Shown here: positions 5,385 to 13,882 of the stretch, piece after piece
How the letters are laid out: each line of letters opens with the position of its first letter
How positions within the stretch are numbered: the stretch's first letter is position 1
Position numbers and translations under genes: made by a program
Assembly (NCBI GenBank): GCA_017626055.1
Contig: JAGAJM010000023.1
Span: 17,571 to 81,570, forward strand
Direction of reading: 5' to 3'
DNA: 64,000 nucleotides
Source: a bacterium
GTDB taxonomy: Bacteria; Cyanobacteriota; Vampirovibrionia; Gastranaerophilales; Gastranaerophilaceae
The notes under the pieces: generated by a model
Databases searched by the model: none
Seen by the model: the letters and a program-made list of their open reading frames with translations, nothing else
Told to the model about the DNA's origin: nothing

Positions 5385-6203
5385 CTAATATAATTTATTG
5401 AATGTATTTAAACTAATTAATTTTTGAAATTCATTATAAATTTCCAGTAAGTCATCATCTAAAAATTCTAGCGTTCTTTCTTTAATGTCTTCTGGAATTG
5501 GATAATATGCTTCTGCAATGCTTCCTGCGATTGCAGTTAAGGTGTCAGAATCTCCACCTAAAGATACAGCAAGCCTAATTACTTCTTCAAAACTACCACC
5601 CTCTAAAAAAGCTATTATAGCTTGAGGAACCGTCTCTTGGCAACTTTCAAGGTGATGATAGGTTATTCTTATTTCGTCGCAAGTTTTAGATAAATCGTAA
5701 GCATATTTTTTTATAATATAATCTTTGATCTCGCTTTTTGTTTTGCCATTTCTTGCTAGAAAAATTGCACTTGCAACAGCTTGAGCGCCTTTTATGCCTT
5801 CTGGGTGGTTATGTGTGGGTAATGCAGATATTTCTGCAAATTTTTCAACATCTTCTAAGTTATCAAAAAACCAAGCGACAGATGAAACTCTCATTGCTGA
5901 ACCATTCCCATAGCTATTATATGGTTGAGGATTATTTGAATGCAGCCAACTTTGAAAATTACAACCGTAACTCATATATGGATATTCTTTCCCAAGTTTT
6001 TGCATACATTTTGTTATTTCATCATAAGTTTTTTGAGAATCTTTTTTGCCGTTCATTAAACCTTGTGCAACTGCTAAAGTCATTATTGTGTCGTCGGTAA
6101 TTTCTGACTCTTCAGAAAACAAAGGAAAATCTGTTGTTTTGATGTTATATTTATCAAACTCATAAGGACTTCCAACAATATCTCCAATTATTGCACCTAG
6201 CAT
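5385..6203 (-). CDS. ADP-ribosylglycohydrolase (ARH/DraG) family protein
   Basis: 272 aa; MLGAIIGDIVGSPYEF, DDTIMTLA, YGNGSAMRVS, GGDSDTLTAIAGSIAEAYY are hallmark ARH blocks; SD GGGGAG. Confidence 0.85.
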   Translation of the reverse strand: MLGAIIGDIVGSPYEFDKYNIKTTDFPLFSEESEITDDTIMTLAVAQGLMNGKKDSQKTYDEITKCMQKLGKEYPYMSYGCNFQSWLHSNNPQPYNSYGNGSAMRVSSVAWFFDNLEDVEKFAEISALPTHNHPEGIKGAQAVASAIFLARNGKTKSEIKDYIIKKYAYDLSKTCDEIRITYHHLESCQETVPQAIIAFLEGGSFEEVIRLAVSLGGDSDTLTAIAGSIAEAYYPIPEDIKERTLEFLDDDLLEIYNEFQKLISLNTFNKLY

Positions 6204-6206
6204 AAG

Positions 6207-6395
6207 TTAACTCCCCATTAAAAAAGCAAAGGCAGCATAAAGATTTGCTAATCCAAAAATAATAAAAAAAATACAATGTCCAATTCTTTCTTTATACGGA
6301 ACAGAATATTTACCTAAAGCTGTTGTTTTAAAAGAAGTTCTAGCTGCTATAAAAGAACATATGCTAAAAAATAAAAATAATAAAAAACCTGCCAT
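6207..6395 (-). CDS. 62-aa two-TM membrane peptide
   Basis: Two hydrophobic helices; SD AAAGGA; 3-nt gap to the ARH gene and 21-nt gap from the upstream gene. Confidence 0.55.
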   Translation of the reverse strand: MAGFLLFLFFSICSFIAARTSFKTTALGKYSVPYKERIGHCIFFIIFGLANLYAAFAFLMGS

Positions 6396-6416
6396 ATTTA
6401 TCCTTTTTTAATTTTT

Positions 6417-7397
6417 TTATAATGCAACATTGTTAATTATCGAATTATACCAATTTTCAAATTTTGAGCGCTGATGTTCATACCAATGATTGCAAACATA
6501 ATATTTTTCACCAAAAATAGGACTATAATATCTTGGATAACCATTTTTATCATATCTGCTCTCATTCTTATTTCTTAAAAGAGGAAAACTTAAATTAAAA
6601 ACTTTTTTGCAATATTCTTCATTTTTTAGATTTAATATTTCTTCTTCCGACAAGTAATTCTTAGCAAATAGATAATTTAATTTATTTTGTACAGTTGCAC
6701 CTATTTTAAACTCATTGTATTGAGCTGTCGTATTTGTTTTTTCTTCTTTTAAATACTGTTTTTTATTAACATTTTTTTCACATAAATTACTTAACTGAAA
6801 TGCACGCATAAATAATTCTGCCGTGTCAGATACGCTAGAAGAAATTTCAACAATAGGATTTAAAATATTTTCCGTAAAACTTTTATTTGCAAATAATTTA
6901 AATTTAAATTCAAAACCTTGTGAACACATGAAATCATAAATTTGTTCTATTCTTTTTTCTAAATCATTATATATAACTGGATTAATTTTAGGAGAAGCGA
7001 AAATTATTTCACCATTTTTTATATCAAAGTAATGATATAAAACAAGAGCCGAGCGCAATAACTTTTTAGAAATTCTTTCTATCGTTTCTTCTTTTGAACC
7101 ATAATTTAAGCCACTTTCATGATATGCAATATCAATAGCATAATAATAAGGCATATTATTATCATCATAGCTTAAACCTAATACATCCAACTCTGCTTGT
7201 TTTATAACTTGTTCATAATTTGCATTATTTTTAAAAACAGGGAAATGAGTTGACATCCTTCTATAGAGTTCTTCAATAGATTGATCGTTATAGGTTGTCC
7301 AATTTGTAGACGGCTTCCAATTTAATTGGGTTATTTTACATTCTTTGGCATGTTTTAACCAAGATTGCATTAATGACTCACCCATTTCTATTTTCAT
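6417..7397 (-). CDS. Hypothetical 326-aa protein (first gene of ARH operon)
   Basis: The track ORF extends to 7469. I prefer ATG at 7397 (MKIEMGES…) because it is preceded by AAGGAG at 7-nt spacing. No domain could be assigned by eye. Confidence 0.7.
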   Translation of the reverse strand: MKIEMGESLMQSWLKHAKECKITQLNWKPSTNWTTYNDQSIEELYRRMSTHFPVFKNNANYEQVIKQAELDVLGLSYDDNNMPYYYAIDIAYHESGLNYGSKEETIERISKKLLRSALVLYHYFDIKNGEIIFASPKINPVIYNDLEKRIEQIYDFMCSQGFEFKFKLFANKSFTENILNPIVEISSSVSDTAELFMRAFQLSNLCEKNVNKKQYLKEEKTNTTAQYNEFKIGATVQNKLNYLFAKNYLSEEEILNLKNEEYCKKVFNLSFPLLRNKNESRYDKNGYPRYYSPIFGEKYYVCNHWYEHQRSKFENWYNSIINNVAL

Positions 7398-7553
7398 ACT
7401 CAACTCCTTTTTCTTTAGGGTACCATAAAAATAGAATCTATTATTATATAATATTTTATAATTTCTCAATGACAGAAACGGTCATATATTTTACTTTCAG
7501 AGATTTTAATTTCATCTGTCGGACAGTTCAAATTCAAAAGAAAAATTCTCGTT

Positions 7554-7676: not shown

Positions 7677-7766
7677 TGGCAGAGGGGAAGAGATTCGAAC
7701 TCTCGGTGAGGTTACCCCCACACAACCTTTCCAAGATTGCACCTTAAGCCACTCGGACACCCCTCT
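7677..7766 (-). tRNA. tRNA-Ser (anticodon GGA), 90 nt, CCA encoded
   Basis: Hand-folded: acceptor AGAGGGG/CCCCTCT, anticodon stem CAATC/GGTTG with loop TTGGAAA, long variable arm, T-loop TTCGAAT, 3' GCCA. Confidence 0.9.
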
Positions 7767-7775
7767 AGGTTTTCT

Positions 7776-7982
7776 CTAATGATTATCATTTAAACGTTGA
7801 GTTTCGTCAAGTTCTATGACTTCATTTTGATAATATTCTTCAGTTTTTTCAACAGAATGAATTTTTGCATCAGCAAGTTTTTCCAGAACTTTTGCATAAT
7901 CCATACATTTTTTGCCTTTTATACCTTCTGTTTCCATTTGTATAGAGCCATCAGGCATAAGTCTTATTTTTATTTTACCCAT
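7776..7982 (-). CDS. 68-aa single-Cys protein, DUF2997-like
   Basis: MGKIKIRLMPDGSIQMETEGIKGKKCMDYAKVLEKL…TEEYY matches my recollection of the DUF2997 pattern (dG.v…G.kG..C…eyy). SD AAGGG; 11-nt gap from the upstream gene. Confidence 0.65.
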   Translation of the reverse strand: MGKIKIRLMPDGSIQMETEGIKGKKCMDYAKVLEKLADAKIHSVEKTEEYYQNEVIELDETQRLNDNH

Positions 7983-7993
7983 AAATTGTACCC

Positions 7994-9259
7994 TTATACA
8001 TCAATTGTCAGAACTATCGAATTATCTTCCATTACAGTTTCACTTTCAAGTCGCATATTCTCTTGTTCTAAACGTTCTTTAATCTTGTTATAAGTCATTT
8101 CTTGAATATTTAACCCATACTCATCGTTCAAATCGTTAATCATGTCTTCGCACTCAGCTTTATCTGAAACTTGTGTCACATCAAGGGTATAGCCATTTGA
8201 ACCATCTTTTTTATAATAAATCATTTCCATACCAAACAACTTACAAGAAACTTCATCACCATTTTCTTGAATTTCTTCTGCGCCGTGCTCAATTAGAGTG
8301 TTTAGCAACATCCCCTTGTCTGTGTAGTTTGTTGTATATGTATAAACCGCCGTAAACATATCGTTAATCAAACGTAAATCACGACCAGCAGCAATATTTA
8401 GTTTTCTAAATATTATTTCAGCTTCCTTTGTAATAGCTGCATTATTAGAACCAGAAAACTCCGCAGTAAAATACCCATTTTTCAAAACCCAATTTAGTGT
8501 AGCATTACTATTTTTCAAAGGTGTTTGGCAATCTGCCTCATAAAACAGGTAATTTGCTTCTTTCAAATACCCTCTGAGCTCCTCTGGTTTAATATTTGTT
8601 TGGATTTTTAAATTAGTAAGACCATATGTAATATTTGTCCCCTGAACAGCACCAGAAACTCCGATATTCAAAATAGTAACTTTCTGTTCAACTTCAAGCG
8701 TGAATGTTTTATCTGAACTCTCTTTGAAATATTTAACACTTTGTCCGTTTAAAGTTGCAACAACTTCATCGTCAGTAGTTGAAAAGATTTCAGTAGCACC
8801 TTCTTTTTTTAGCGCAGAATAAATCTCAGGCATTGATTGATAAGTTGTGTCATACTGATAATAAAAATATTCACTAGACTCAATCAATCTTACATTACGA
8901 TTAGCAACCTTATCTAATTCTGTAAAAAAATGCTCTCCAAACACCTGCAAAGATTCAGAATCACAGTTACCAGTCAAGTTAGCAACCATATATTTGCCGT
9001 GATTAATCCATTGAACTTTTAACCCTGTATTCATAAAATAAGGTACGTGAATTCTTTGCTCAGGACAACCAAGTTGCATCATTAGAGATGAAAGTTCTTG
9101 ATAAGTAATATTTGTCAAAACTCTAATTCTTTTAAGATTTTGAGTTGCAACAGTTTTATTTGTAACTGTTTCATCAGCGGCGACACGAAGTTTTTCAGAC
9201 TTTGCATCTTCTGGATTTATTAAAAAAGCCATAGGGTAAGCAACTAAAGTGATAGACAT
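7994..9259 (-). CDS. 421-aa protein with internal A-B-A-B duplication; possibly DUF1257/Ycf35-related
   Basis: Two repeat pairs are visible in the protein. GATEIFSTTDDEVVATLNGQSVKYFKESSDKTFTLEVEQ aligns with GAEEIQENGDEVSCKLFGMEMIYYKKDGSNGYTLDVTQ. RVLTNITYQEL…WINHGKYMVANLTG aligns with IQTNIKPEEL…WVLKNGYFTAEFSG. The DUF1257 link rests only on genomic context and memory. Confidence 0.65.
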   Translation of the reverse strand: MSITLVAYPMAFLINPEDAKSEKLRVAADETVTNKTVATQNLKRIRVLTNITYQELSSLMMQLGCPEQRIHVPYFMNTGLKVQWINHGKYMVANLTGNCDSESLQVFGEHFFTELDKVANRNVRLIESSEYFYYQYDTTYQSMPEIYSALKKEGATEIFSTTDDEVVATLNGQSVKYFKESSDKTFTLEVEQKVTILNIGVSGAVQGTNITYGLTNLKIQTNIKPEELRGYLKEANYLFYEADCQTPLKNSNATLNWVLKNGYFTAEFSGSNNAAITKEAEIIFRKLNIAAGRDLRLINDMFTAVYTYTTNYTDKGMLLNTLIEHGAEEIQENGDEVSCKLFGMEMIYYKKDGSNGYTLDVTQVSDKAECEDMINDLNDEYGLNIQEMTYNKIKERLEQENMRLESETVMEDNSIVLTIDV

Positions 9260-9274
9260 TTACTTAATTTCCCC

Positions 9275-10903
9275 CTAAACATCCAAAGCTCTTCCGCCAC
9301 GAGAGTTGTTAACATCAGAACCATCCTCAACATTAGTTGAATATTCAGCCAAATCATCTTTACGAGTAGCTGCAACAGCTCTAACATTCGCCCATTGACG
9401 AAGCCCTAAAATCTGTTCTTTTTGAGTTACAGAAAGCGGTACAACGTTTTTAATTGTAGCCTCTAAATCAGCAAATTCTAAAGGTCGTTTATTGAAAAAT
9501 GCTTCATATAATGCAGTAATTACAACTTGTTCAATTTCCGCACCAACAAAACCTTCAGTCATATCAGCAAGTTTTTCAAGTAACTCTTCATTAACTTCCA
9601 ATTTGCTAGAAACTTCTTTATCTTTTAATCTTTTTGCTAGATGAAGCTTGAAAATTTCTTTACGTTCTCTATGGGTAGGTAGGTCAACAAAGAAAATTTC
9701 ATCAAAACGACCTTTTCTTAACAACTCAGCTGGAAGCCCGCTAATATTGTTTGCAGTAGCAATAACAAATACTGGAGCCGTTTTTTCTTGCATCCAAGTT
9801 AAGAAAGTACCAAAAATTCTTGATGAAGTCCCGCTATCACCATTTGACCCAGAACCCATACCACTTAAACTTTTTTCAATTTCGTCAACCCAAAGAATCG
9901 ATGGTGCAACAGCTTCAGCGGTTTTAATAGCTTTTCTCATATTTTCTTCAGAACTACCAACTATACCAGAGAAAATTTTACCAAAATCTAATTTCAAGAG
10001 TGGTAATTGCCATGCGGCACTCATAGCTTTTGCAGTCAAACTCTTACCACAACCAGGAACCCCAGTAATCAAAACCCCTTTTGGCGCTGGTAAGCAATAT
10101 TTCTTAGCTGATTCTGACCAAGAATTGTTACGCTTATTCAACCAGTTCTTAAGATTTTCCAAACCACCAACATCTGAAATTTTAATATCAGTATTAATAA
10201 ACTCTAAAATACCAGTTTTCTTAATTACTTGCATTTTTTCACTAAGAATAATTGACAAATCTTTGCCATCAATTTTGCCATCATTAACCATTGATAGAGC
10301 AAAAGCATTTTCAGCTTCTTGCAAAGTCAAACCTAAAGCAGCTTTGCAAAGTTTTTCTTTACCTTCATCATCTAAGTCAGAAGTATCAATTTGATTATTT
10401 TGAGTAACCATTTTATCTAACTTAGCTTTGATTTCTTCTAATGTTGGCAAAGGTAAATCAACAATAGTAATTTCTTTTTGCATAGATTCTGGAATAAGAA
10501 GTTCTGATGCCACAAATATAACATTTTTTCTAAATTTACTTGTTTTTAATTCCCCAATAATATCTCTTAAACGTCTAACAACATTATAATCAACTTGGCG
10601 ACCTTTCACCCCGAAATAAACGTGAAAATCGCACATTACAAAGACCGCATTTTTATTACAATCACGAATAAAATCAATAGCTTTATCAGGACTACTTGTT
10701 CCTTCAACTTTTTTGCCATCAAGTAAAAAACCATTAGTTTGTGTCCAAACATAAACTTCACGAGGAACACGAATTAATTTTTCTGATTTCGCAAGTTTTT
10801 TGATAACAGAAAGAGCTCTTTCTTCTTCCCACGTTGTGATATAAATATATGGAAATCTTGCTCTAAACAATTTTGATAGTTGTGATGTAATATTGTTAGT
10901 CAT
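9275..10903 (-). CDS. ycf46: Ycf46-type AAA+ ATPase
   Basis: 542 aa; N-terminus LFRARFPYIYITTWEEER typical of Ycf46; Walker A GVPGCGKSLTAK; Walker B ILWVDEIEK; second region of homology ATANNISGLPAELLRKGRFDEIFFV. Confidence 0.8.
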   Translation of the reverse strand: MTNNITSQLSKLFRARFPYIYITTWEEERALSVIKKLAKSEKLIRVPREVYVWTQTNGFLLDGKKVEGTSSPDKAIDFIRDCNKNAVFVMCDFHVYFGVKGRQVDYNVVRRLRDIIGELKTSKFRKNVIFVASELLIPESMQKEITIVDLPLPTLEEIKAKLDKMVTQNNQIDTSDLDDEGKEKLCKAALGLTLQEAENAFALSMVNDGKIDGKDLSIILSEKMQVIKKTGILEFINTDIKISDVGGLENLKNWLNKRNNSWSESAKKYCLPAPKGVLITGVPGCGKSLTAKAMSAAWQLPLLKLDFGKIFSGIVGSSEENMRKAIKTAEAVAPSILWVDEIEKSLSGMGSGSNGDSGTSSRIFGTFLTWMQEKTAPVFVIATANNISGLPAELLRKGRFDEIFFVDLPTHRERKEIFKLHLAKRLKDKEVSSKLEVNEELLEKLADMTEGFVGAEIEQVVITALYEAFFNKRPLEFADLEATIKNVVPLSVTQKEQILGLRQWANVRAVAATRKDDLAEYSTNVEDGSDVNNSRGGRALDV

Positions 10904-10925
10904 AGTTATAAACCTCTCATTGGCT

Positions 10926-11531
10926 TTATTTTACATTATTTTTGCCAAGTTGTAAACAGAAATTTCTTCTAATCTGGTCAAAATCCCCCATACCATTGAT
11001 TTCTAACTTTCCATCTTCTCCAATCCTAGCTTCTATTTTATTTTTATATCGAGAAATTATTTCTTGGTTATAAAAATCGGTTAGGAATATATATCTTTGA
11101 TTAGAGGAACCAACCCAAGGTCTTGATAAATCAAACTTATCTTGCTCGAAACCTCCATCAATAAGTAAATCAATACTAGACAAAAAAAGATTTACACCAT
11201 CATCATTTTTTGATTGTAATTCCTCTAGCGTATAACCTGTAAAACAAAGAACAGAAAGTCCTAAACCTTTTATTTTTATGGATAATTCAGCTAACTCATC
11301 TGCTTGTTCAAAAGGTTCACCACCTAAAAAAGTAATTCCTTCGATATCTTGAACTTCTTTTATCTGATTAAACAAATCATCAACAGAATATTTTGTCCCA
11401 ATCCCAAACTCCCAAGTATCTTTCGCCCAACAGTTTGGGCAGTGTTTTTTACACCCTTGAACCCAAATACAAAAGCGTTTTCCAGGACCTTCAACTTGAG
11501 TATTTTTTAAGAGTTTAAACACATCAATCAT
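10926..11531 (-). CDS. Radical SAM glycyl-radical-enzyme activase-like protein (NrdG-type)
   Basis: 201 aa; EGPGKRFCIWVQGCKKHCPNCW (CxxxCxxC cluster), GGEPF, GSSNQRYIF. The start overlaps the stop of the upstream gene (TAATG at 11529-11533). Confidence 0.8.
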   Translation of the reverse strand: MIDVFKLLKNTQVEGPGKRFCIWVQGCKKHCPNCWAKDTWEFGIGTKYSVDDLFNQIKEVQDIEGITFLGGEPFEQADELAELSIKIKGLGLSVLCFTGYTLEELQSKNDDGVNLFLSSIDLLIDGGFEQDKFDLSRPWVGSSNQRYIFLTDFYNQEIISRYKNKIEARIGEDGKLEINGMGDFDQIRRNFCLQLGKNNVK

Positions 11532-12538
11532 TAGAAATCAACAACCCTACCATCTGAAAGTTCATCGTCATCAGATTTTTCAACTGGTTTACCTATAACA
11601 ATCATTGGTTTAATTTTTTGTACAAAATGATCCTTTACATTTGCAACTGCAAAAAACTCATCATCGGATTTAAACAATCCATTCAAATCCCTGTGTTCGA
11701 CAATCTTTTTAGCTCCAACAATATTTATACCAGGCAAAATAGCAATTTCACTAGCTGTCGCAAAGTTAACATCAATTTTATTTGAACCAGAAGAAAGAAT
11801 ATCCCCTAAGTCACTAAACTGTTGAACCTCAGCTTCTTTTGGAACATATGCAACTTGCTCTTGAATATCTGAAAGATTAGTAAAAGCAACCTCTTTTTGA
11901 GCTTTCGGAACATACTGTTTTTGTTCTTGAATATTATCAATATCAACAAACCTAGCCCCTTTATCATTGACTTTGTTAGAGCCCTCAGCGAAAGAATCCG
12001 CTTGAATACCACCCATTTCAACAAATTTTGGACCTTGATTTGATCTGTCAATTCTCATTTCTTTTTTCTTTGGAGTTTCTGGCATATCAAGAGTAATTAT
12101 CTCAACATTTGTATCGTAGCTATAAAAAGTAGCCAAGGATTCTAAAGTCATATAACTATCAAAAACCTTACAAACTCTATGCCAAGCCTTATTTACATTA
12201 AGTTTACCTTTTTGCAAAGTAAACATTCTTTTTGCGCGTCTTTTATCGGCAAAATTATCCATTACAACAAGTTTTTCATCTGGGGTATAGATTATTGTAA
12301 CATTTTCATTATGCAAAGCATTATCCCTAAGTACAAACTGCCTATTCACAAGTTTAATACTTGTCTTGTATATAAGATTTAAGAAGAAATGCCTTACAAT
12401 AAAAAATGTAATAGCACACAAAACCACAATAAACAAACCCATTTTAAAGGCTTCTGGGCGTTCTAAAAACAGAGCAATAAGAAACGCAATAAGCGCCATC
12501 GCTAAGTTAAAACCATGATTTCTTCGACGATAAAACAT
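11531..12538 (-). CDS. Membrane-anchored protein with C-terminal ComEA-like helix-hairpin-helix
   Basis: 335 aa; two N-terminal TM helices; duplicated DIQEQ..YVPK segment; FATASEIAILPGINIVGAKKIVEHRDLNGLFKSDDEF resembles the ComEA HhH motif. Confidence 0.7.
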   Translation of the reverse strand: MFYRRRNHGFNLAMALIAFLIALFLERPEAFKMGLFIVVLCAITFFIVRHFFLNLIYKTSIKLVNRQFVLRDNALHNENVTIIYTPDEKLVVMDNFADKRRAKRMFTLQKGKLNVNKAWHRVCKVFDSYMTLESLATFYSYDTNVEIITLDMPETPKKKEMRIDRSNQGPKFVEMGGIQADSFAEGSNKVNDKGARFVDIDNIQEQKQYVPKAQKEVAFTNLSDIQEQVAYVPKEAEVQQFSDLGDILSSGSNKIDVNFATASEIAILPGINIVGAKKIVEHRDLNGLFKSDDEFFAVANVKDHFVQKIKPMIVIGKPVEKSDDDELSDGRVVDF

Positions 12539-12607
12539 AATACAACAATATCACAGATTACAATATTTCAATGATGTAAATAGATGATTTTATGCTAAAA
12601 TCAAACT

Positions 12608-13882
12608 ATGCAAAAGAAAGTTTCGACACTAAATAAACCTCTTAATGGTGAAATTACTATTCCTGCGGATAAATCAATTTCGCACAGAGCAGTAATGTTT
12701 TCTTCACTTGCAAAAGGTACATCTATCATTAGAAACTTCTCAGATGGTCAAGATCCCCTTACAACTCTAAAAATTTTCAACCAACTCGGAATTGAAAGTG
12801 ATATTAAAGAAAATGAGATTATTATTAAATCAACAGGCAAACTAAAACAAAATAATTTACCCCTTGATTGTGGTAACTCTGGAACTACAATGCGCCTAGT
12901 TTCTGGGATTTTAGCTGGTCAAAATTTTAATTCTGTTTTAATTGGCGATGAAAGTCTTTCAAAACGCCCTATGAAAAGAATTATCGAACCTTTAACACAA
13001 ATGGGAGCAATTATTGAAGCTAACGAATATAAAGCTCCATTAAAAATCACTGGTCAAGACTTACACGCAATTGATTACACATCACAAATAGCTTCAGCTC
13101 AAGTTAAGTCTTGTATTTTACTTGCAGGATTAGGGGTAAATGATGGAATTACATCTGTCACAGAGCCATACGTTTCAAGAAATCATACTGAACTTATGCT
13201 AAAAGCTATGGGGGCAAACATCTCAACTAATGGAACAAAAGTTTCTATCCAAAAATCCGAACTTTCACCAATAGAAATTAATATTTGCGGTGATATTTCA
13301 TCAGCTGCATATTTTATCGTTGCGGCGTTAATTGTTCCAAATTCAAAAATAATACTAAAAAAAGTTGGACTAAATCCAACAAGAACAGGAATTTTAGATG
13401 TTGCACAAAAAATGGGGGCAAATATCAAAATTCTTGATGAAAAAGAAGTTTATGGAGAAAAAGTTGGGGATATCCAAATTGAATACTCAGAATTAAATGG
13501 TTGTGAAATATCAGGTGAAATTATTCCACGACTTATTGATGAAATACCTATTATCGCAGTTCTTGCAACTCAAGCAAAAGGTAAAACTGTTATAAAAGAT
13601 GCTCAAGATTTACGTAACAAAGAATCTGACAGAATTACAGCCGTTGTAACTGAGCTAAAAAGACTTGGTGCAAATATTGAAGAAACACCAGATGGTATGA
13701 TTATCAGGGGTAAATGTAATTTATTAGGTGACACTGAAGTTGAAACTTATCACGACCATAGACTTGCTATGAGTTTATATGTTGCAGGCTTGATCTGCGA
13801 AAAAGAAATTTTAATTAACGGATTTGAATGGGTAAATATTTCATTCCCTACATTTGAAGAATTATTTAATAAGCTAATCTAA
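12608..13882 (+). CDS. aroA: 3-phosphoshikimate 1-carboxyvinyltransferase (EPSP synthase)
   Basis: 424 aa; ADKSISHRAVMFSSLA, LDCGNSGTTMRL, DHRLAMS blocks. Confidence 0.95.
   Translation: MQKKVSTLNKPLNGEITIPADKSISHRAVMFSSLAKGTSIIRNFSDGQDPLTTLKIFNQLGIESDIKENEIIIKSTGKLKQNNLPLDCGNSGTTMRLVSGILAGQNFNSVLIGDESLSKRPMKRIIEPLTQMGAIIEANEYKAPLKITGQDLHAIDYTSQIASAQVKSCILLAGLGVNDGITSVTEPYVSRNHTELMLKAMGANISTNGTKVSIQKSELSPIEINICGDISSAAYFIVAALIVPNSKIILKKVGLNPTRTGILDVAQKMGANIKILDEKEVYGEKVGDIQIEYSELNGCEISGEIIPRLIDEIPIIAVLATQAKGKTVIKDAQDLRNKESDRITAVVTELKRLGANIEETPDGMIIRGKCNLLGDTEVETYHDHRLAMSLYVAGLICEKEILINGFEWVNISFPTFEELFNKLI

Follow-up and report, generated by a model that had tools for sequence, protein, structure and literature searches.

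A radical SAM enzyme and helix-hairpin-helix proteins accompany the Ycf46/DUF1257/DUF2997 module in a recurrent five-gene operon

Ycf46-type AAA+ ATPases, DUF1257 (Ycf35) proteins and DUF2997 proteins are encoded side by side in cyanobacteria, plastids, phages and plasmids. In cyanobacteria, the genes for DUF2997 and DUF1257 cluster with fed7, which encodes a 4Fe-4S ferredoxin (PMC4284462), and the three-gene ycf46 operon of Synechococcus elongatus is induced by stress in a (p)ppGpp-dependent manner, the mechanism being unknown (10.1101/2025.07.21.665879). In this study, we have analysed a stretch of 64,000 nucleotides (the window) from a member of the Gastranaerophilales (family Gastranaerophilaceae; contig JAGAJM010000023.1, positions 17,571 to 81,570), in which these three components form an operon with two further genes, one encoding a radical S-adenosylmethionine (SAM) enzyme and one encoding a protein with a helix-hairpin-helix (HhH) domain. 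Like the trio, this five-gene cassette has adjacent genes for an AAA+ ATPase, a DUF1257 relative and a DUF2997 protein, and both have a hydrophobic-acidic-hydrophobic C-terminus of the ATPase in common. Unlike the trio, the cassette adds the radical SAM enzyme and one or more predicted membrane HhH proteins, its ATPase ends in an RGGR tail, and its DUF1257 protein carries an N-terminal hydrophobic peptide as well as, in this particular clade, a duplicated insertion of ~320 aa. The original prediction, which was made from the DNA alone, knew of no described version with a radical SAM activase and an HhH anchor; searches of the literature and of defence libraries likewise found none, and no published description of the five-gene system was found in the literature searched. 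The cassette is best filed as an undescribed variant of the uncharacterised Ycf46/DUF1257/DUF2997 module.

The five-gene operon is real, and it is found again, in altered gene orders, in at least four phyla. All the refuting conditions set in the original prediction came out in its favour, and its scope has widened considerably. In the window, all genes are located on the minus strand: gene 1 for the HhH protein (335 aa; 11531..12538), gene 2 for the NrdG/PflA-like radical SAM enzyme (201 aa; 10926..11531), gene 3 for the Ycf46-type AAA+ ATPase (542 aa; 9275..10903), gene 4 for the DUF1257-like protein (421 aa; 7994..9259) and gene 5 for the DUF2997 protein (68 aa; 7776..7982). These assignments are based on the translated open reading frames (ORFs) in combination with Pfam (genes 1, 2, 3 and 5), the NrdG model TIGR02491 (gene 2), PHROGs (gene 3) and a chain of profiles (gene 4). 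The coordinates, a 1-nt overlap, gaps of 22, 15 and 11 nt and an end just before a tRNA-Ser gene had all been predicted, and they were confirmed to the base. Genes 1 and 2 overlap by 1 nt (TTCTAATGATT, a TAATG overlap). Between genes 2 and 3, the TAA stop codon is followed by 22 nt including GAGAGG and then by ATG; between genes 3 and 4, TAG is followed by 15 nt starting with GGGGAAA and then by ATG; and between genes 4 and 5, TAA is followed by 11 nt (GGGTACAATTT) and ATG, with the purine run AAGGG spanning the stop codon. The purine runs that had been noticed at the three distal genes can thus be read at each of these junctions. A sequence scan detected no intrinsic-terminator-like site within the operon on the minus strand.

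The distribution of the cassette was studied by a scan with an alignment of the ATPase, taking one genome per species; the best 80 of at least 595 genome loci were retained, and their ORFs were called and searched with hidden Markov models (HMMs) of the five families. The full five-part set was present in 22 of the 56 species-representative loci that have at least 2.5 kb of flanking sequence on both sides. Its hosts belong to the Gastranaerophilales, the Bacillota (Bacilli and Clostridia), the Actinomycetota (Micromonospora, Dactylosporangium, Microbacterium, Nocardia, Amycolatopsis and others) and the Bacteroidota (Tenacibaculum and Tannerellaceae), so that the cassette is not peculiar to the lineage of the window. 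The five parts are co-inherited across four phyla. They occur in at least five gene orders, and on chromosomes, megaplasmids and predicted prophages. As found by tblastn, megaplasmids of B. cereus and B. thuringiensis carry the order radical SAM - 151-aa protein - HhH - AAA - DUF2997 (ATPase 60% identical to that of the window), and plasmids of Paenarthrobacter, Arthrobacter and Rhodococcus carry AAA - 141-aa protein - DUF2997 - HhH - radical SAM (50-51% identical). The expectation that the order seen in the window would be conserved in related genomes was borne out for the Gastranaerophilales, in which related contigs keep it beside a divergent aroA gene; in the three other phyla the set recurs in shuffled form. 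The loci from Cyanobacteria, Myxococcota, Planctomycetota and phages contain the core only, i.e. the AAA+ and DUF1257 proteins with or without DUF2997. A Pfam census of 144 ORFs around 19 non-melainabacterial cassettes yielded 119 families, none of which occurred in more than three loci. We can therefore conclude that the conserved unit consists of the five genes themselves.

The full five-part set was also detected on two viral contigs of IMG/VR. On one contig (L096:2985-10423; IMGVR_UViG_3300018493_003783), a gene for a Terminase_3 large subunit (E = 1.8e-21) is located two genes upstream of a complete cassette of the Gastranaerophilales type, the ATPase of which is 66% identical to that of the window; thus, the cassette can ride on (pro)phages. 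Locus L097 was predicted to be a prophage, from a Paenibacillus-like isolate. The Treponema succinifaciens plasmid pTRESU01 (L007:1-17473) encodes a pair of a radical SAM protein and a Ycf46-type AAA protein in the absence of DUF1257, DUF2997 and HhH, and this pair sits among genes annotated as contractile injection system or baseplate genes (VgrG/Pvc8, baseplate protein V). Two loci bear the labels of archaeal metagenome-assembled genomes (Methanomethylophilaceae and Methanosphaera): L017 (CAVAPR010000029.1), whose cassette is 85% identical to that of the window and shares its synteny up to and including aroA, is apparently a bacterial contig that was mis-binned, and L032 (SUTR01000039.1) has a 52% identical RGGR-type ATPase and an HhH gene.

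The product of gene 2 is a radical SAM enzyme (Pfam Fer4_12/Radical_SAM, E = 4.6e-36) with the hallmarks of glycyl-radical activases. Its CX3CX2C motif for the [4Fe-4S]/SAM cluster (C27, C31, C34; 11430..11453, minus strand) follows an activase-type EGPGKR loop that aligns with DGPGIR of PflA, the best match in the PDB by sequence (E = 1.4e-7), and the three cysteines as well as the motif G70-G71-E72 are invariant in the alignment of the radical SAM proteins (A5). With the AlphaFold2 model (predicted local distance difference test [pLDDT] 81.5) as the query, Foldseek retrieved 8fo0, 3c8f and the peptide-bound 3cb8 (E = 3e-8 to 2e-7, root-mean-square deviation [rmsd] 2.3-3.0 A), and PflA ranked ahead of QueE (1.6e-4). 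The features by which a glycyl-radical activase is recognised, the CX3CX2C motif, the [DE]GxGxR loop and a PflA-like partial barrel, are all present. Like NrdG (TIGR02491) and PflA (3c8f, 3cb8), the protein has CX3CX2C, the GGE SAM motif, the [DE]GPGxR loop and GSSNQ; unlike them, it has no adjoining nrdD or pfl gene and carries a DUF2997-like module, and the cassette proteins lack a recurrent RVxG[FWY] motif. This agrees with the predicted activase of the NrdG/PflA type, with GSSNQ and with no glycyl-radical enzyme alongside.

Several observations argue against an ordinary NrdG. The protein covers the whole TIGR02491 model but reaches only 121.5 bits as compared to the cutoff of 126.1, and it scores far below the cutoffs of the other NrdG models. 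It extends ~50-55 residues beyond GSSNQ, whereas the NrdG of B. cereus (149 aa) ends with GSSNQRIIRLK; the five annotated NrdGs that we fetched for comparison have 149-201 aa. Among the plasmid hits, those annotated as nrdG align only to residue 145-150 of the protein, and the ones examined adjoin nrdD, whereas the hits with alignments up to residue 180-191, which is the reach of the cassette-type proteins, without exception bear the name '4Fe-4S single cluster domain-containing protein'. The C-terminal part (about residues 160-193; 10953..11054, minus strand) forms a DUF2997-like module of a beta-hairpin and a helix, with strands at 166-170 and 176-180 and a helix at 185-190 in the AlphaFold2 model. 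An hhalign comparison of 38 such C-terminal extensions to the DUF2997 alignment gave a probability of 88% (E = 2.9e-6, score 32.1), as compared to a maximum score of 11.2 in 40 column shuffles and of 11.8 for the reversed alignment. The GxKGxxC loop of DUF2997 is missing from this module. No NrdD was present among ten of the window's largest ORFs searched with Pfam, a set that leaves out some other large ORFs, and no nrdD gene was found in any cassette locus examined. The identification of gene 2 as an ordinary NrdG was thus rejected based on the score below the cutoff, the lack of an adjoining nrdD and the C-terminal module of ~50 aa that annotated NrdGs lack, and the possibility raised in the original prediction that it is simply the partner of a distant nrdD fails on the same score and on the reach of the alignments.

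In B. cereus SRCM116293, the cassette is encoded on one plasmid, and nrdD together with an nrdG-like ORF is encoded on another. This ORF (L141:3501-3950; plasmid unnamed2) directly follows nrdD, has an in-frame stop at codon 129 in this assembly and is missing from the gene table of the plasmid; it is either a pseudogene or the result of a sequencing error. In two Gastranaerophilales genomes (L001:15355-18539 and L002:1-1653), a pyruvate formate-lyase (PFL) gene is located within 4-5 kb of the cassette, on opposite sides, which is probably coincidental. L001 has its own PFL activase of 251 aa next to PFL, so that PFL does not depend on the cassette enzyme in this genome.

Members of the radical SAM subfamily of gene 2, including the C-terminal hairpin (custom HMM, E = 1e-53 to 1e-63), are paired with nucleoside triphosphatases (NTPases) in other loci as well. 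On the plasmids pPNAP02 of Polaromonas (L138:1-6606) and pW18-2-a of Moellerella (L139:1-6576), the order is large AAA - PIN_4 (821 aa) - hypothetical protein (367 aa) - ClpB-like AAA_2 (622 aa) - radical SAM. The ClpB-like ATPase matches PDC-M37B (1.7e-29) and DolB (8e-21) in PADLOC, the Moellerella operon adjoins genes for ArdA, a PD-(D/E)XK nuclease and an integrase, and the whole looks like an undescribed conflict system. On the plasmid pGM01 of Geminocystis sp. NIES-3708 (L140:1-12588), two DO-GTPase genes and several hypothetical genes directly follow the radical SAM gene, with an anti-phage dCTP deaminase, a dGTPase and UvrD/exonuclease fragments alongside, in what looks like the context of a defence island. 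These loci differ from the cassette by their other NTPases, by the absence of DUF1257, DUF2997 and HhH, and by the presence of a PIN nuclease.

The product of gene 1 has two hydrophobic helices near its N-terminus, which are followed by a variable linker, an HhH domain of the ComEA type and, at the C-terminus, a conserved tail. The two helices and the duplicated YVPK segment that had been proposed for this protein are both visible in the translation, the latter as an IQEQ..YVPK repeat within the linker. The HHH_3 domain (residues 252-313; 11600..11785, minus strand) was identified with Pfam PF12836 (E = 2.7e-13, 50.2 bits versus a cutoff of 27). A Kyte-Doolittle scan located an N-terminal hydrophobic hairpin (about residues 12-55; 12374..12505, minus strand) with hydrophobic segments at residues 9-25 and 32-48 and flanking charges of +3 before and +4 after them, and the protein is predicted from this hydrophobic N-terminus to be membrane-anchored. 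In the family, one to three N-terminal hydrophobic segments are present, and the flank after the last one is mostly positive. Since positive charge flanks both helices, the positive-inside rule suggests that both termini are cytoplasmic, and the HhH domain is probably cytoplasmic as well. N258, R283, G287, F289, R331 and D334 are invariant in the alignment of the HhH proteins (A4). As for the proposed relationship to ComEA, the competence DNA receptor, the C-terminal HHH_3 domain and the N-terminal anchor are indeed shared, but the HhH region is all that matches TIGR01259 comEA (41.4 bits, cutoff 152.35). Gene 1 further differs from ComEA in its two-helix hairpin anchor with positive flanks, in its conserved C-terminal tail and in its location inside an AAA+/radical SAM cassette, often in tandem copies.

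Every five-part locus encodes an HhH homologue, and some encode several. Tandem HhH paralogues were found in L022 (eight), in L020 (three) and in L001, L016, L028, L046 and L096 (two each). The HhH domains and tails of the amplified paralogues are conserved, and their N-terminal regions are divergent. In L022 (L022:2299-7341; sheep-rumen bacterium JAFXYZ010000014.1), the eight paralogues, with tails of the form ERx[ILV]D[LIF], are encoded directly upstream of the radical SAM gene.

The ATPase encoded by gene 3 (Pfam AAA, E = 1.9e-28, and AAA_lid_3) consists of a family-specific N-domain of ~235 aa, one classical AAA domain with its lid, and a conserved C-terminal tail. That it is of the Ycf46 type, as had been proposed, is supported by its match to phrog_8638, a family of unknown function (E = 6.4e-147, residues 3-520), and by 43-46% identity to cyanobacterial homologues over residues 8-520. 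In the Walker A motif GVPGCGKS (10040..10063, minus strand), G281, G284, G286 and K287 are invariant in 11 diverse homologues; in alignment A2 of the AAA+ proteins, K287 (Walker A), D340 and E341 (Walker B), N385 (sensor-1) and the arginine fingers R396 and R399 are invariant. The family has a pore-loop-like I/L/Y-V-G motif. The best PDB matches are VAT and the D2 domain of p97 (E about 1e-97). The protein resembles Cdc48/p97/VAT and the proteasomal unfoldases in its classical AAA domain, in the integrity of its catalytic residues and in a conserved tail at the extreme C-terminus, the type of which varies together with a partner gene; it differs from Cdc48/p97/VAT by its single active AAA domain and by the absence of a peptidase partner, and its tail motif, which is unlike HbYX-type docking tails, is common to a subunit that is not an ATPase. 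We also considered the N-domain as a degenerate second AAA domain, but the match to the AAA lid region was weak (hhalign probability 46%, E = 2e-4). A representative-cluster search with the AAA+ protein retrieved 5152 clusters at E <= 1e-30, a number that does not size the RGGR variant since clustering at 50% identity merges this variant into a handful of clusters.

The C-terminal tails are the feature that links the ATPase to the HhH protein. The AAA+ protein ends with RGGRALDV (9278..9301, minus strand), and comparison of the tails among the loci gave the motif RGGR-x-[ILV]-[DE]-hydrophobic-COOH. The HhH protein ends with DGRVVDF (11534..11554, minus strand; motif [GE]-R-x-[ILV]-D-hydrophobic-COOH), including the R331 and D334 that are invariant in A4, and the [GE]Rx[ILV]DΦ tail is present on almost all of ~50 HhH homologues from four phyla. 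Among the 56 species-representative loci, 19 have both a GGR-type AAA+ tail and an HhH gene, 32 have neither, and one and four are discordant, mostly as near-variants (Fisher p = 4e-10); likewise, a hydrophobic-acidic-hydrophobic C-terminus of the AAA+ protein and a DUF1257 neighbour go together in the wider family (33 both, 17 neither, one and five discordant, p = 4e-9), both p values being calculated without regard to phylogeny. YQRMEF is an example of a cyanobacterial AAA+ tail. On a plasmid of Geminocystis sp. NIES-3709 (L011:8779-9075), a gene two positions downstream of a Ycf46-type AAA gene is annotated with a tyrosine/phenylalanine carboxypeptidase domain; this is worth mentioning only because the ATPases of the family end in conserved aromatic or hydrophobic residues.

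The 421-aa protein encoded by gene 4 is composed of an N-terminal hydrophobic peptide, two repeats of ~160 aa and a C-terminal DUF1257-like domain. The internal duplication that had been noticed is evident, with 27% identity between the halves over 159 aa (E = 2e-12). The protein has 245 homologues, of which the best 120 are all at least 63% identical and ~420 aa long, and it has no match in Pfam (E <= 0.1), NCBIfam, PADLOC or PHROGs. The proposed assignment to DUF1257 thus finds no support in Pfam itself; what supports it is a chain of profiles. An HMM of the small cassette-type proteins recognises residues 305-421 (7997..8347, minus strand; independent E-value 7e-33), and these small proteins in turn match 17 canonical DUF1257 proteins from loci without radical SAM genes (hhalign probability 98.2%, E = 5e-14, 109 columns). 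For the gene 4 family as a whole, the match to canonical DUF1257 has a probability of 77% (E = 2e-5), and it drops to 0.8% in a direct hhalign comparison to one phage DUF1257 protein; the homology is seen via the small cassette-type intermediates. The 151-aa counterpart from B. cereus matches Pfam DUF1257 (PF06868) with E = 0.017 (15.8 bits, cutoff 22.2). Elsewhere, the slot of gene 4 is occupied by genes for products of 125-190 aa, among them a P. polymyxa gene annotated as DUF1257, and other Gastranaerophilales have versions of 175-191 aa in this position. The cassette-type DUF1257 proteins have gained an N-terminal hydrophobic peptide, starting with MS[IV]x[IL][IV]L[IV]P[LA]A, and the two ~160-aa repeats are confined to the aroA-linked clade. 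As judged from these profiles, the 421-aa protein is a lineage-specific, internally duplicated relative of DUF1257. Its AlphaFold2 model (pLDDT 62) has two repeated alpha/beta modules, and the fold matches that Foldseek found in the PDB, saddles like that of the TATA-binding protein (TM 0.16-0.3, rmsd 8-11 A), were too weak to be used.

For gene 5, the predicted relationship to DUF2997 has direct support: the 68-aa protein matches Pfam PF11211 with E = 2.6e-12 and 46.9 bits (cutoff 24.1) over profile positions 1-47 of 47. An alignment of 50 homologues revealed a conserved G-x-K-G-x-x-C loop and a T-x-E-Y-Y motif.

How the five parts might work together can be outlined from these features. We suggest, at somewhat less than an even chance, that the products of the five genes make up a single protein machine, self-contained and horizontally mobile, which is built on the Ycf46/DUF1257/DUF2997 core and serves in conflict or DNA surveillance. 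The AAA+ protein would form a hexameric unfoldase. Co-occurrence and sequence resemblance point to the DUF1257-like protein as a hub that may bind the shared C-terminal tails. The ATPase would thereby be connected with one or more membrane-anchored HhH subunits, and these would keep double-stranded DNA at the cytoplasmic side of the membrane. Given their resemblance, DUF2997 and the similar module of the radical SAM enzyme might share a second docking site, which would place the activase-type enzyme beside the ATPase. A substitution of DUF2997 by this module would fit the Treponema plasmid, which has the radical SAM and AAA+ proteins but no separate DUF2997. The active site of an activase-type enzyme would be open and suited to a polypeptide substrate, and the enzyme may carry out hydrogen abstraction on one of its protein partners or on a client that the ATPase delivers; candidate targets are the RGGR tail, DUF2997 and DUF1257 rather than a canonical glycyl-radical enzyme. 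The weakest step is the putative role in conflict or DNA surveillance on plasmids and prophages, from where the cassette would have become a fixed chromosomal operon in one clade of the Gastranaerophilales. We favour a conflict role because of the carriage on plasmids and prophages, the amplification of HhH genes and the reuse of the radical SAM subfamily in conflict-type operons. It is tempting to speculate, although we consider this rather doubtful, that the activase homologue is recruited via its DUF2997-like adaptor and puts a radical or a radical-derived modification on a protein other than a glycyl-radical enzyme, presented by a Cdc48-like unfoldase at the interface of membrane and DNA, and that the radical SAM subfamily is a shared effector or activator in Ycf46-type, PIN/ClpB-like and DO-GTPase conflict systems.

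A number of results weigh against this proposal. In one clade of the Gastranaerophilales, the operon is syntenic and 64-98% conserved, and the three-gene core has the appearance of a housekeeping function in cyanobacteria and plastids, both of which count against a defence role. The enrichment in defence islands that the original prediction had proposed to look for was not seen: the 144 ORFs (119 families) in the flanks of the 19 cassettes show no sign of an accumulation of defence or phage genes. PADLOC-DB v2.0.0 matched no defence system; the AAA+ protein had a generic match to IetA (E = 1e-20), the radical SAM enzyme had a similarly generic match to pVip (E = 2e-4), the HhH protein had two marginal matches (E = 0.011 and 0.034), and there was no match for the 421-aa protein or DUF2997. 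Among the candidate substrates, no canonical RVxG[FWY] glycyl-radical motif was found with the pattern R[IVTL][CSAG]G[YFW] in 11,952 ORFs; there was one match in a cassette family (a DUF1257-like ORF of L028) and, among the clearly real genes, otherwise the PFL fragment of L001, and the motif is not recurrent. The alignment of DUF2997 homologues showed no feature specific to loci with a radical SAM gene. In a neighbour-joining tree of the radical SAM core, the five bona fide NrdGs are placed apart from the cassette enzymes with a bootstrap support of at most 0.34. The tail associations are open to the influence of phylogeny mentioned above, and the radical SAM cassettes without an HhH gene (Treponema, P. 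polymyxa and two metagenome-assembled genomes) have no RGGR tail, so that RGGR is tied to the HhH protein and not to the radical SAM enzyme. Moreover, the glycine that precedes the tail arginine is replaced by Glu in many HhH proteins of the Gastranaerophilales. The idea that the RGGR tail is the substrate of the radical SAM enzyme is weakened by both the tracking of RGGR with HhH and the poor conservation of this glycine.

The complex might exist as proposed and yet serve in DNA handling for mobile elements or their hosts rather than in conflict, which we regard as unlikely. The HhH protein would then tether replicating, incoming or packaged DNA to the membrane, the AAA+ protein would remodel the tether, and the radical SAM enzyme might act on the DNA. 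There are precedents for both activities, since p16.7 of phage phi29 tethers DNA to the membrane and spore photoproduct lyase is a radical SAM enzyme that acts on DNA. The close distance of the full cassette to the terminase gene in L096 fits this explanation, as do the AAA/DUF1257/DUF2997 core of Rhizobium phage RHph_I4, which adjoins genes for a DnaB-like helicase and Pol I, the presence of the core on contigs of jumbo-phage size and of the cassette on megaplasmids, and the sequence-nonspecific DNA binding of ComEA-type HhH domains. It is countered by the absence of replication, partition or packaging genes in the flanks of the chromosomal copies and by the closest relatives of the radical SAM enzyme, which act on protein loops and not on DNA; and simple tethering hardly accounts for a locus with eight HhH paralogues in tandem. 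We see still less reason to believe in a stress or redox checkpoint module like cyanobacterial Ycf46, in which the AAA+ protein would remodel targets during growth arrest and the [4Fe-4S]/SAM enzyme would be mainly a sensor of oxygen or redox state. It is true that the ycf46 operon of S. elongatus is induced by severe oxidative stress and darkness (10.1101/2025.07.21.665879) and that an Fe-S partner recurs in the clustering of DUF2997 and DUF1257 with fed7 in cyanobacteria (PMC4284462), and the stable position of the operon next to aroA on the chromosomes of one strictly anaerobic clade would suit such a function. But the full conservation of the SAM-binding and activase motifs argues for catalysis, the patchy, plasmid-borne spread over phyla would be unusual for a housekeeping checkpoint, and the DNA-binding membrane subunit and its amplification would be left without a role.

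Two further explanations concern the nature of the radical SAM enzyme. If DUF2997 were a peptide precursor, it could be modified by this enzyme, e.g. by a cross-link of Cys to carbon, and be unfolded or exported by the AAA+ protein. DUF2997 is small, with a single cysteine in an invariant G-x-K-G-x-x-C loop, and exactly this loop is lacking in the DUF2997-like domain of the enzyme, which could pair with the substrate. Such a maturation is nevertheless very improbable in view of the wide occurrence of DUF2997 with the conserved loop in three-gene loci devoid of a radical SAM gene, of the Treponema locus with radical SAM and AAA+ but no DUF2997, and of the absence of a SPASM or auxiliary-cluster domain from the enzyme and of a protease or exporter from the cassette. 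Finally, the juxtaposition could be fortuitous, with the radical SAM protein being the housekeeping NrdG of a distant nrdD, the HhH protein being ComEA, and only the trio belonging together. The NrdG score is just 4.6 bits below the cutoff, close relatives carry the label 'anaerobic ribonucleoside-triphosphate reductase activating protein' in several public sources, and the anaerobic Gastranaerophilales may need a class III reductase. This explanation is largely refuted and retains hardly any credibility: the trio is accompanied by the radical SAM and HhH genes in four phyla, with at least five different gene orders, and the hosts include Micromonospora, Dactylosporangium and Microbacterium, which are aerobic actinomycetes. 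Moreover, the DUF2997-like extension is absent from all annotated nrdD-linked NrdGs, B. cereus SRCM116293 keeps the cassette and the nrdD/nrdG-like pair with its in-frame stop on separate plasmids, and the HhH protein is far below the comEA cutoff and has its C-terminal tail in common with the AAA+ protein.

The surroundings of the operon in the window are as follows. Upstream of gene 1, the divergent aroA gene is separated from it by a gap of 69 nt that contains a weak promoter-like site (TTTGCA-16-TAAAAT, 9 of 12 consensus matches; 12587..12614, minus strand), the sole such site upstream of gene 1; in the region, promoter-like sites are not more frequent than in shuffled sequence (26 versus 20 +/- 4.3). 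The 3' boundary of the operon is a tRNA-Ser(GGA) gene detected with ARAGORN (7677..7766, minus strand), which lies 9 nt past the last stop codon. Beyond this gene, the flanks vary among relatives, and L002 has a fragment of a phage integrase there; because of these differences and of the integrase fragment, the tRNA-Ser gene seems to mark the border of a region that is variable and possibly integrative. In the window, an ADP-ribosylglycohydrolase and an orphan protein of 350 aa (with a TTG start codon) are encoded downstream of the tRNA gene (5385-7469), and the orphan has no match in Pfam, NCBIfam, PADLOC or PHROGs. The GC content is uniform throughout the window (0.28-0.36), and thus the five-gene cluster is not compositionally foreign. 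Far from the cassette and unrelated to it, the window also encodes a probable type IIG-like restriction-modification enzyme of 637 aa with N6_Mtase, Eco57I and TaqI_C domains (58656-60569).

Conservation of the Ycf46/DUF1257/DUF2997 trio extends from cyanobacteria and plastids to jumbo phages, and the trio has no assigned mechanism. The five-gene variant provides testable handles: the shared C-terminal tail predicts binding partners, and the adaptor-like domain predicts how the enzyme is recruited. Our work also points to a systematic problem in annotation, as radical SAM enzymes of the cassette type are sometimes labelled NrdG. To our knowledge, the family of NrdG/PflA-type activases has until now been linked with hardly any targets other than glycyl-radical enzymes. 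Should the activase homologue of the cassette indeed act on a new class of protein substrates, this would widen the scope of protein-radical chemistry and would offer the first biochemical entry point to the whole Ycf46 family.

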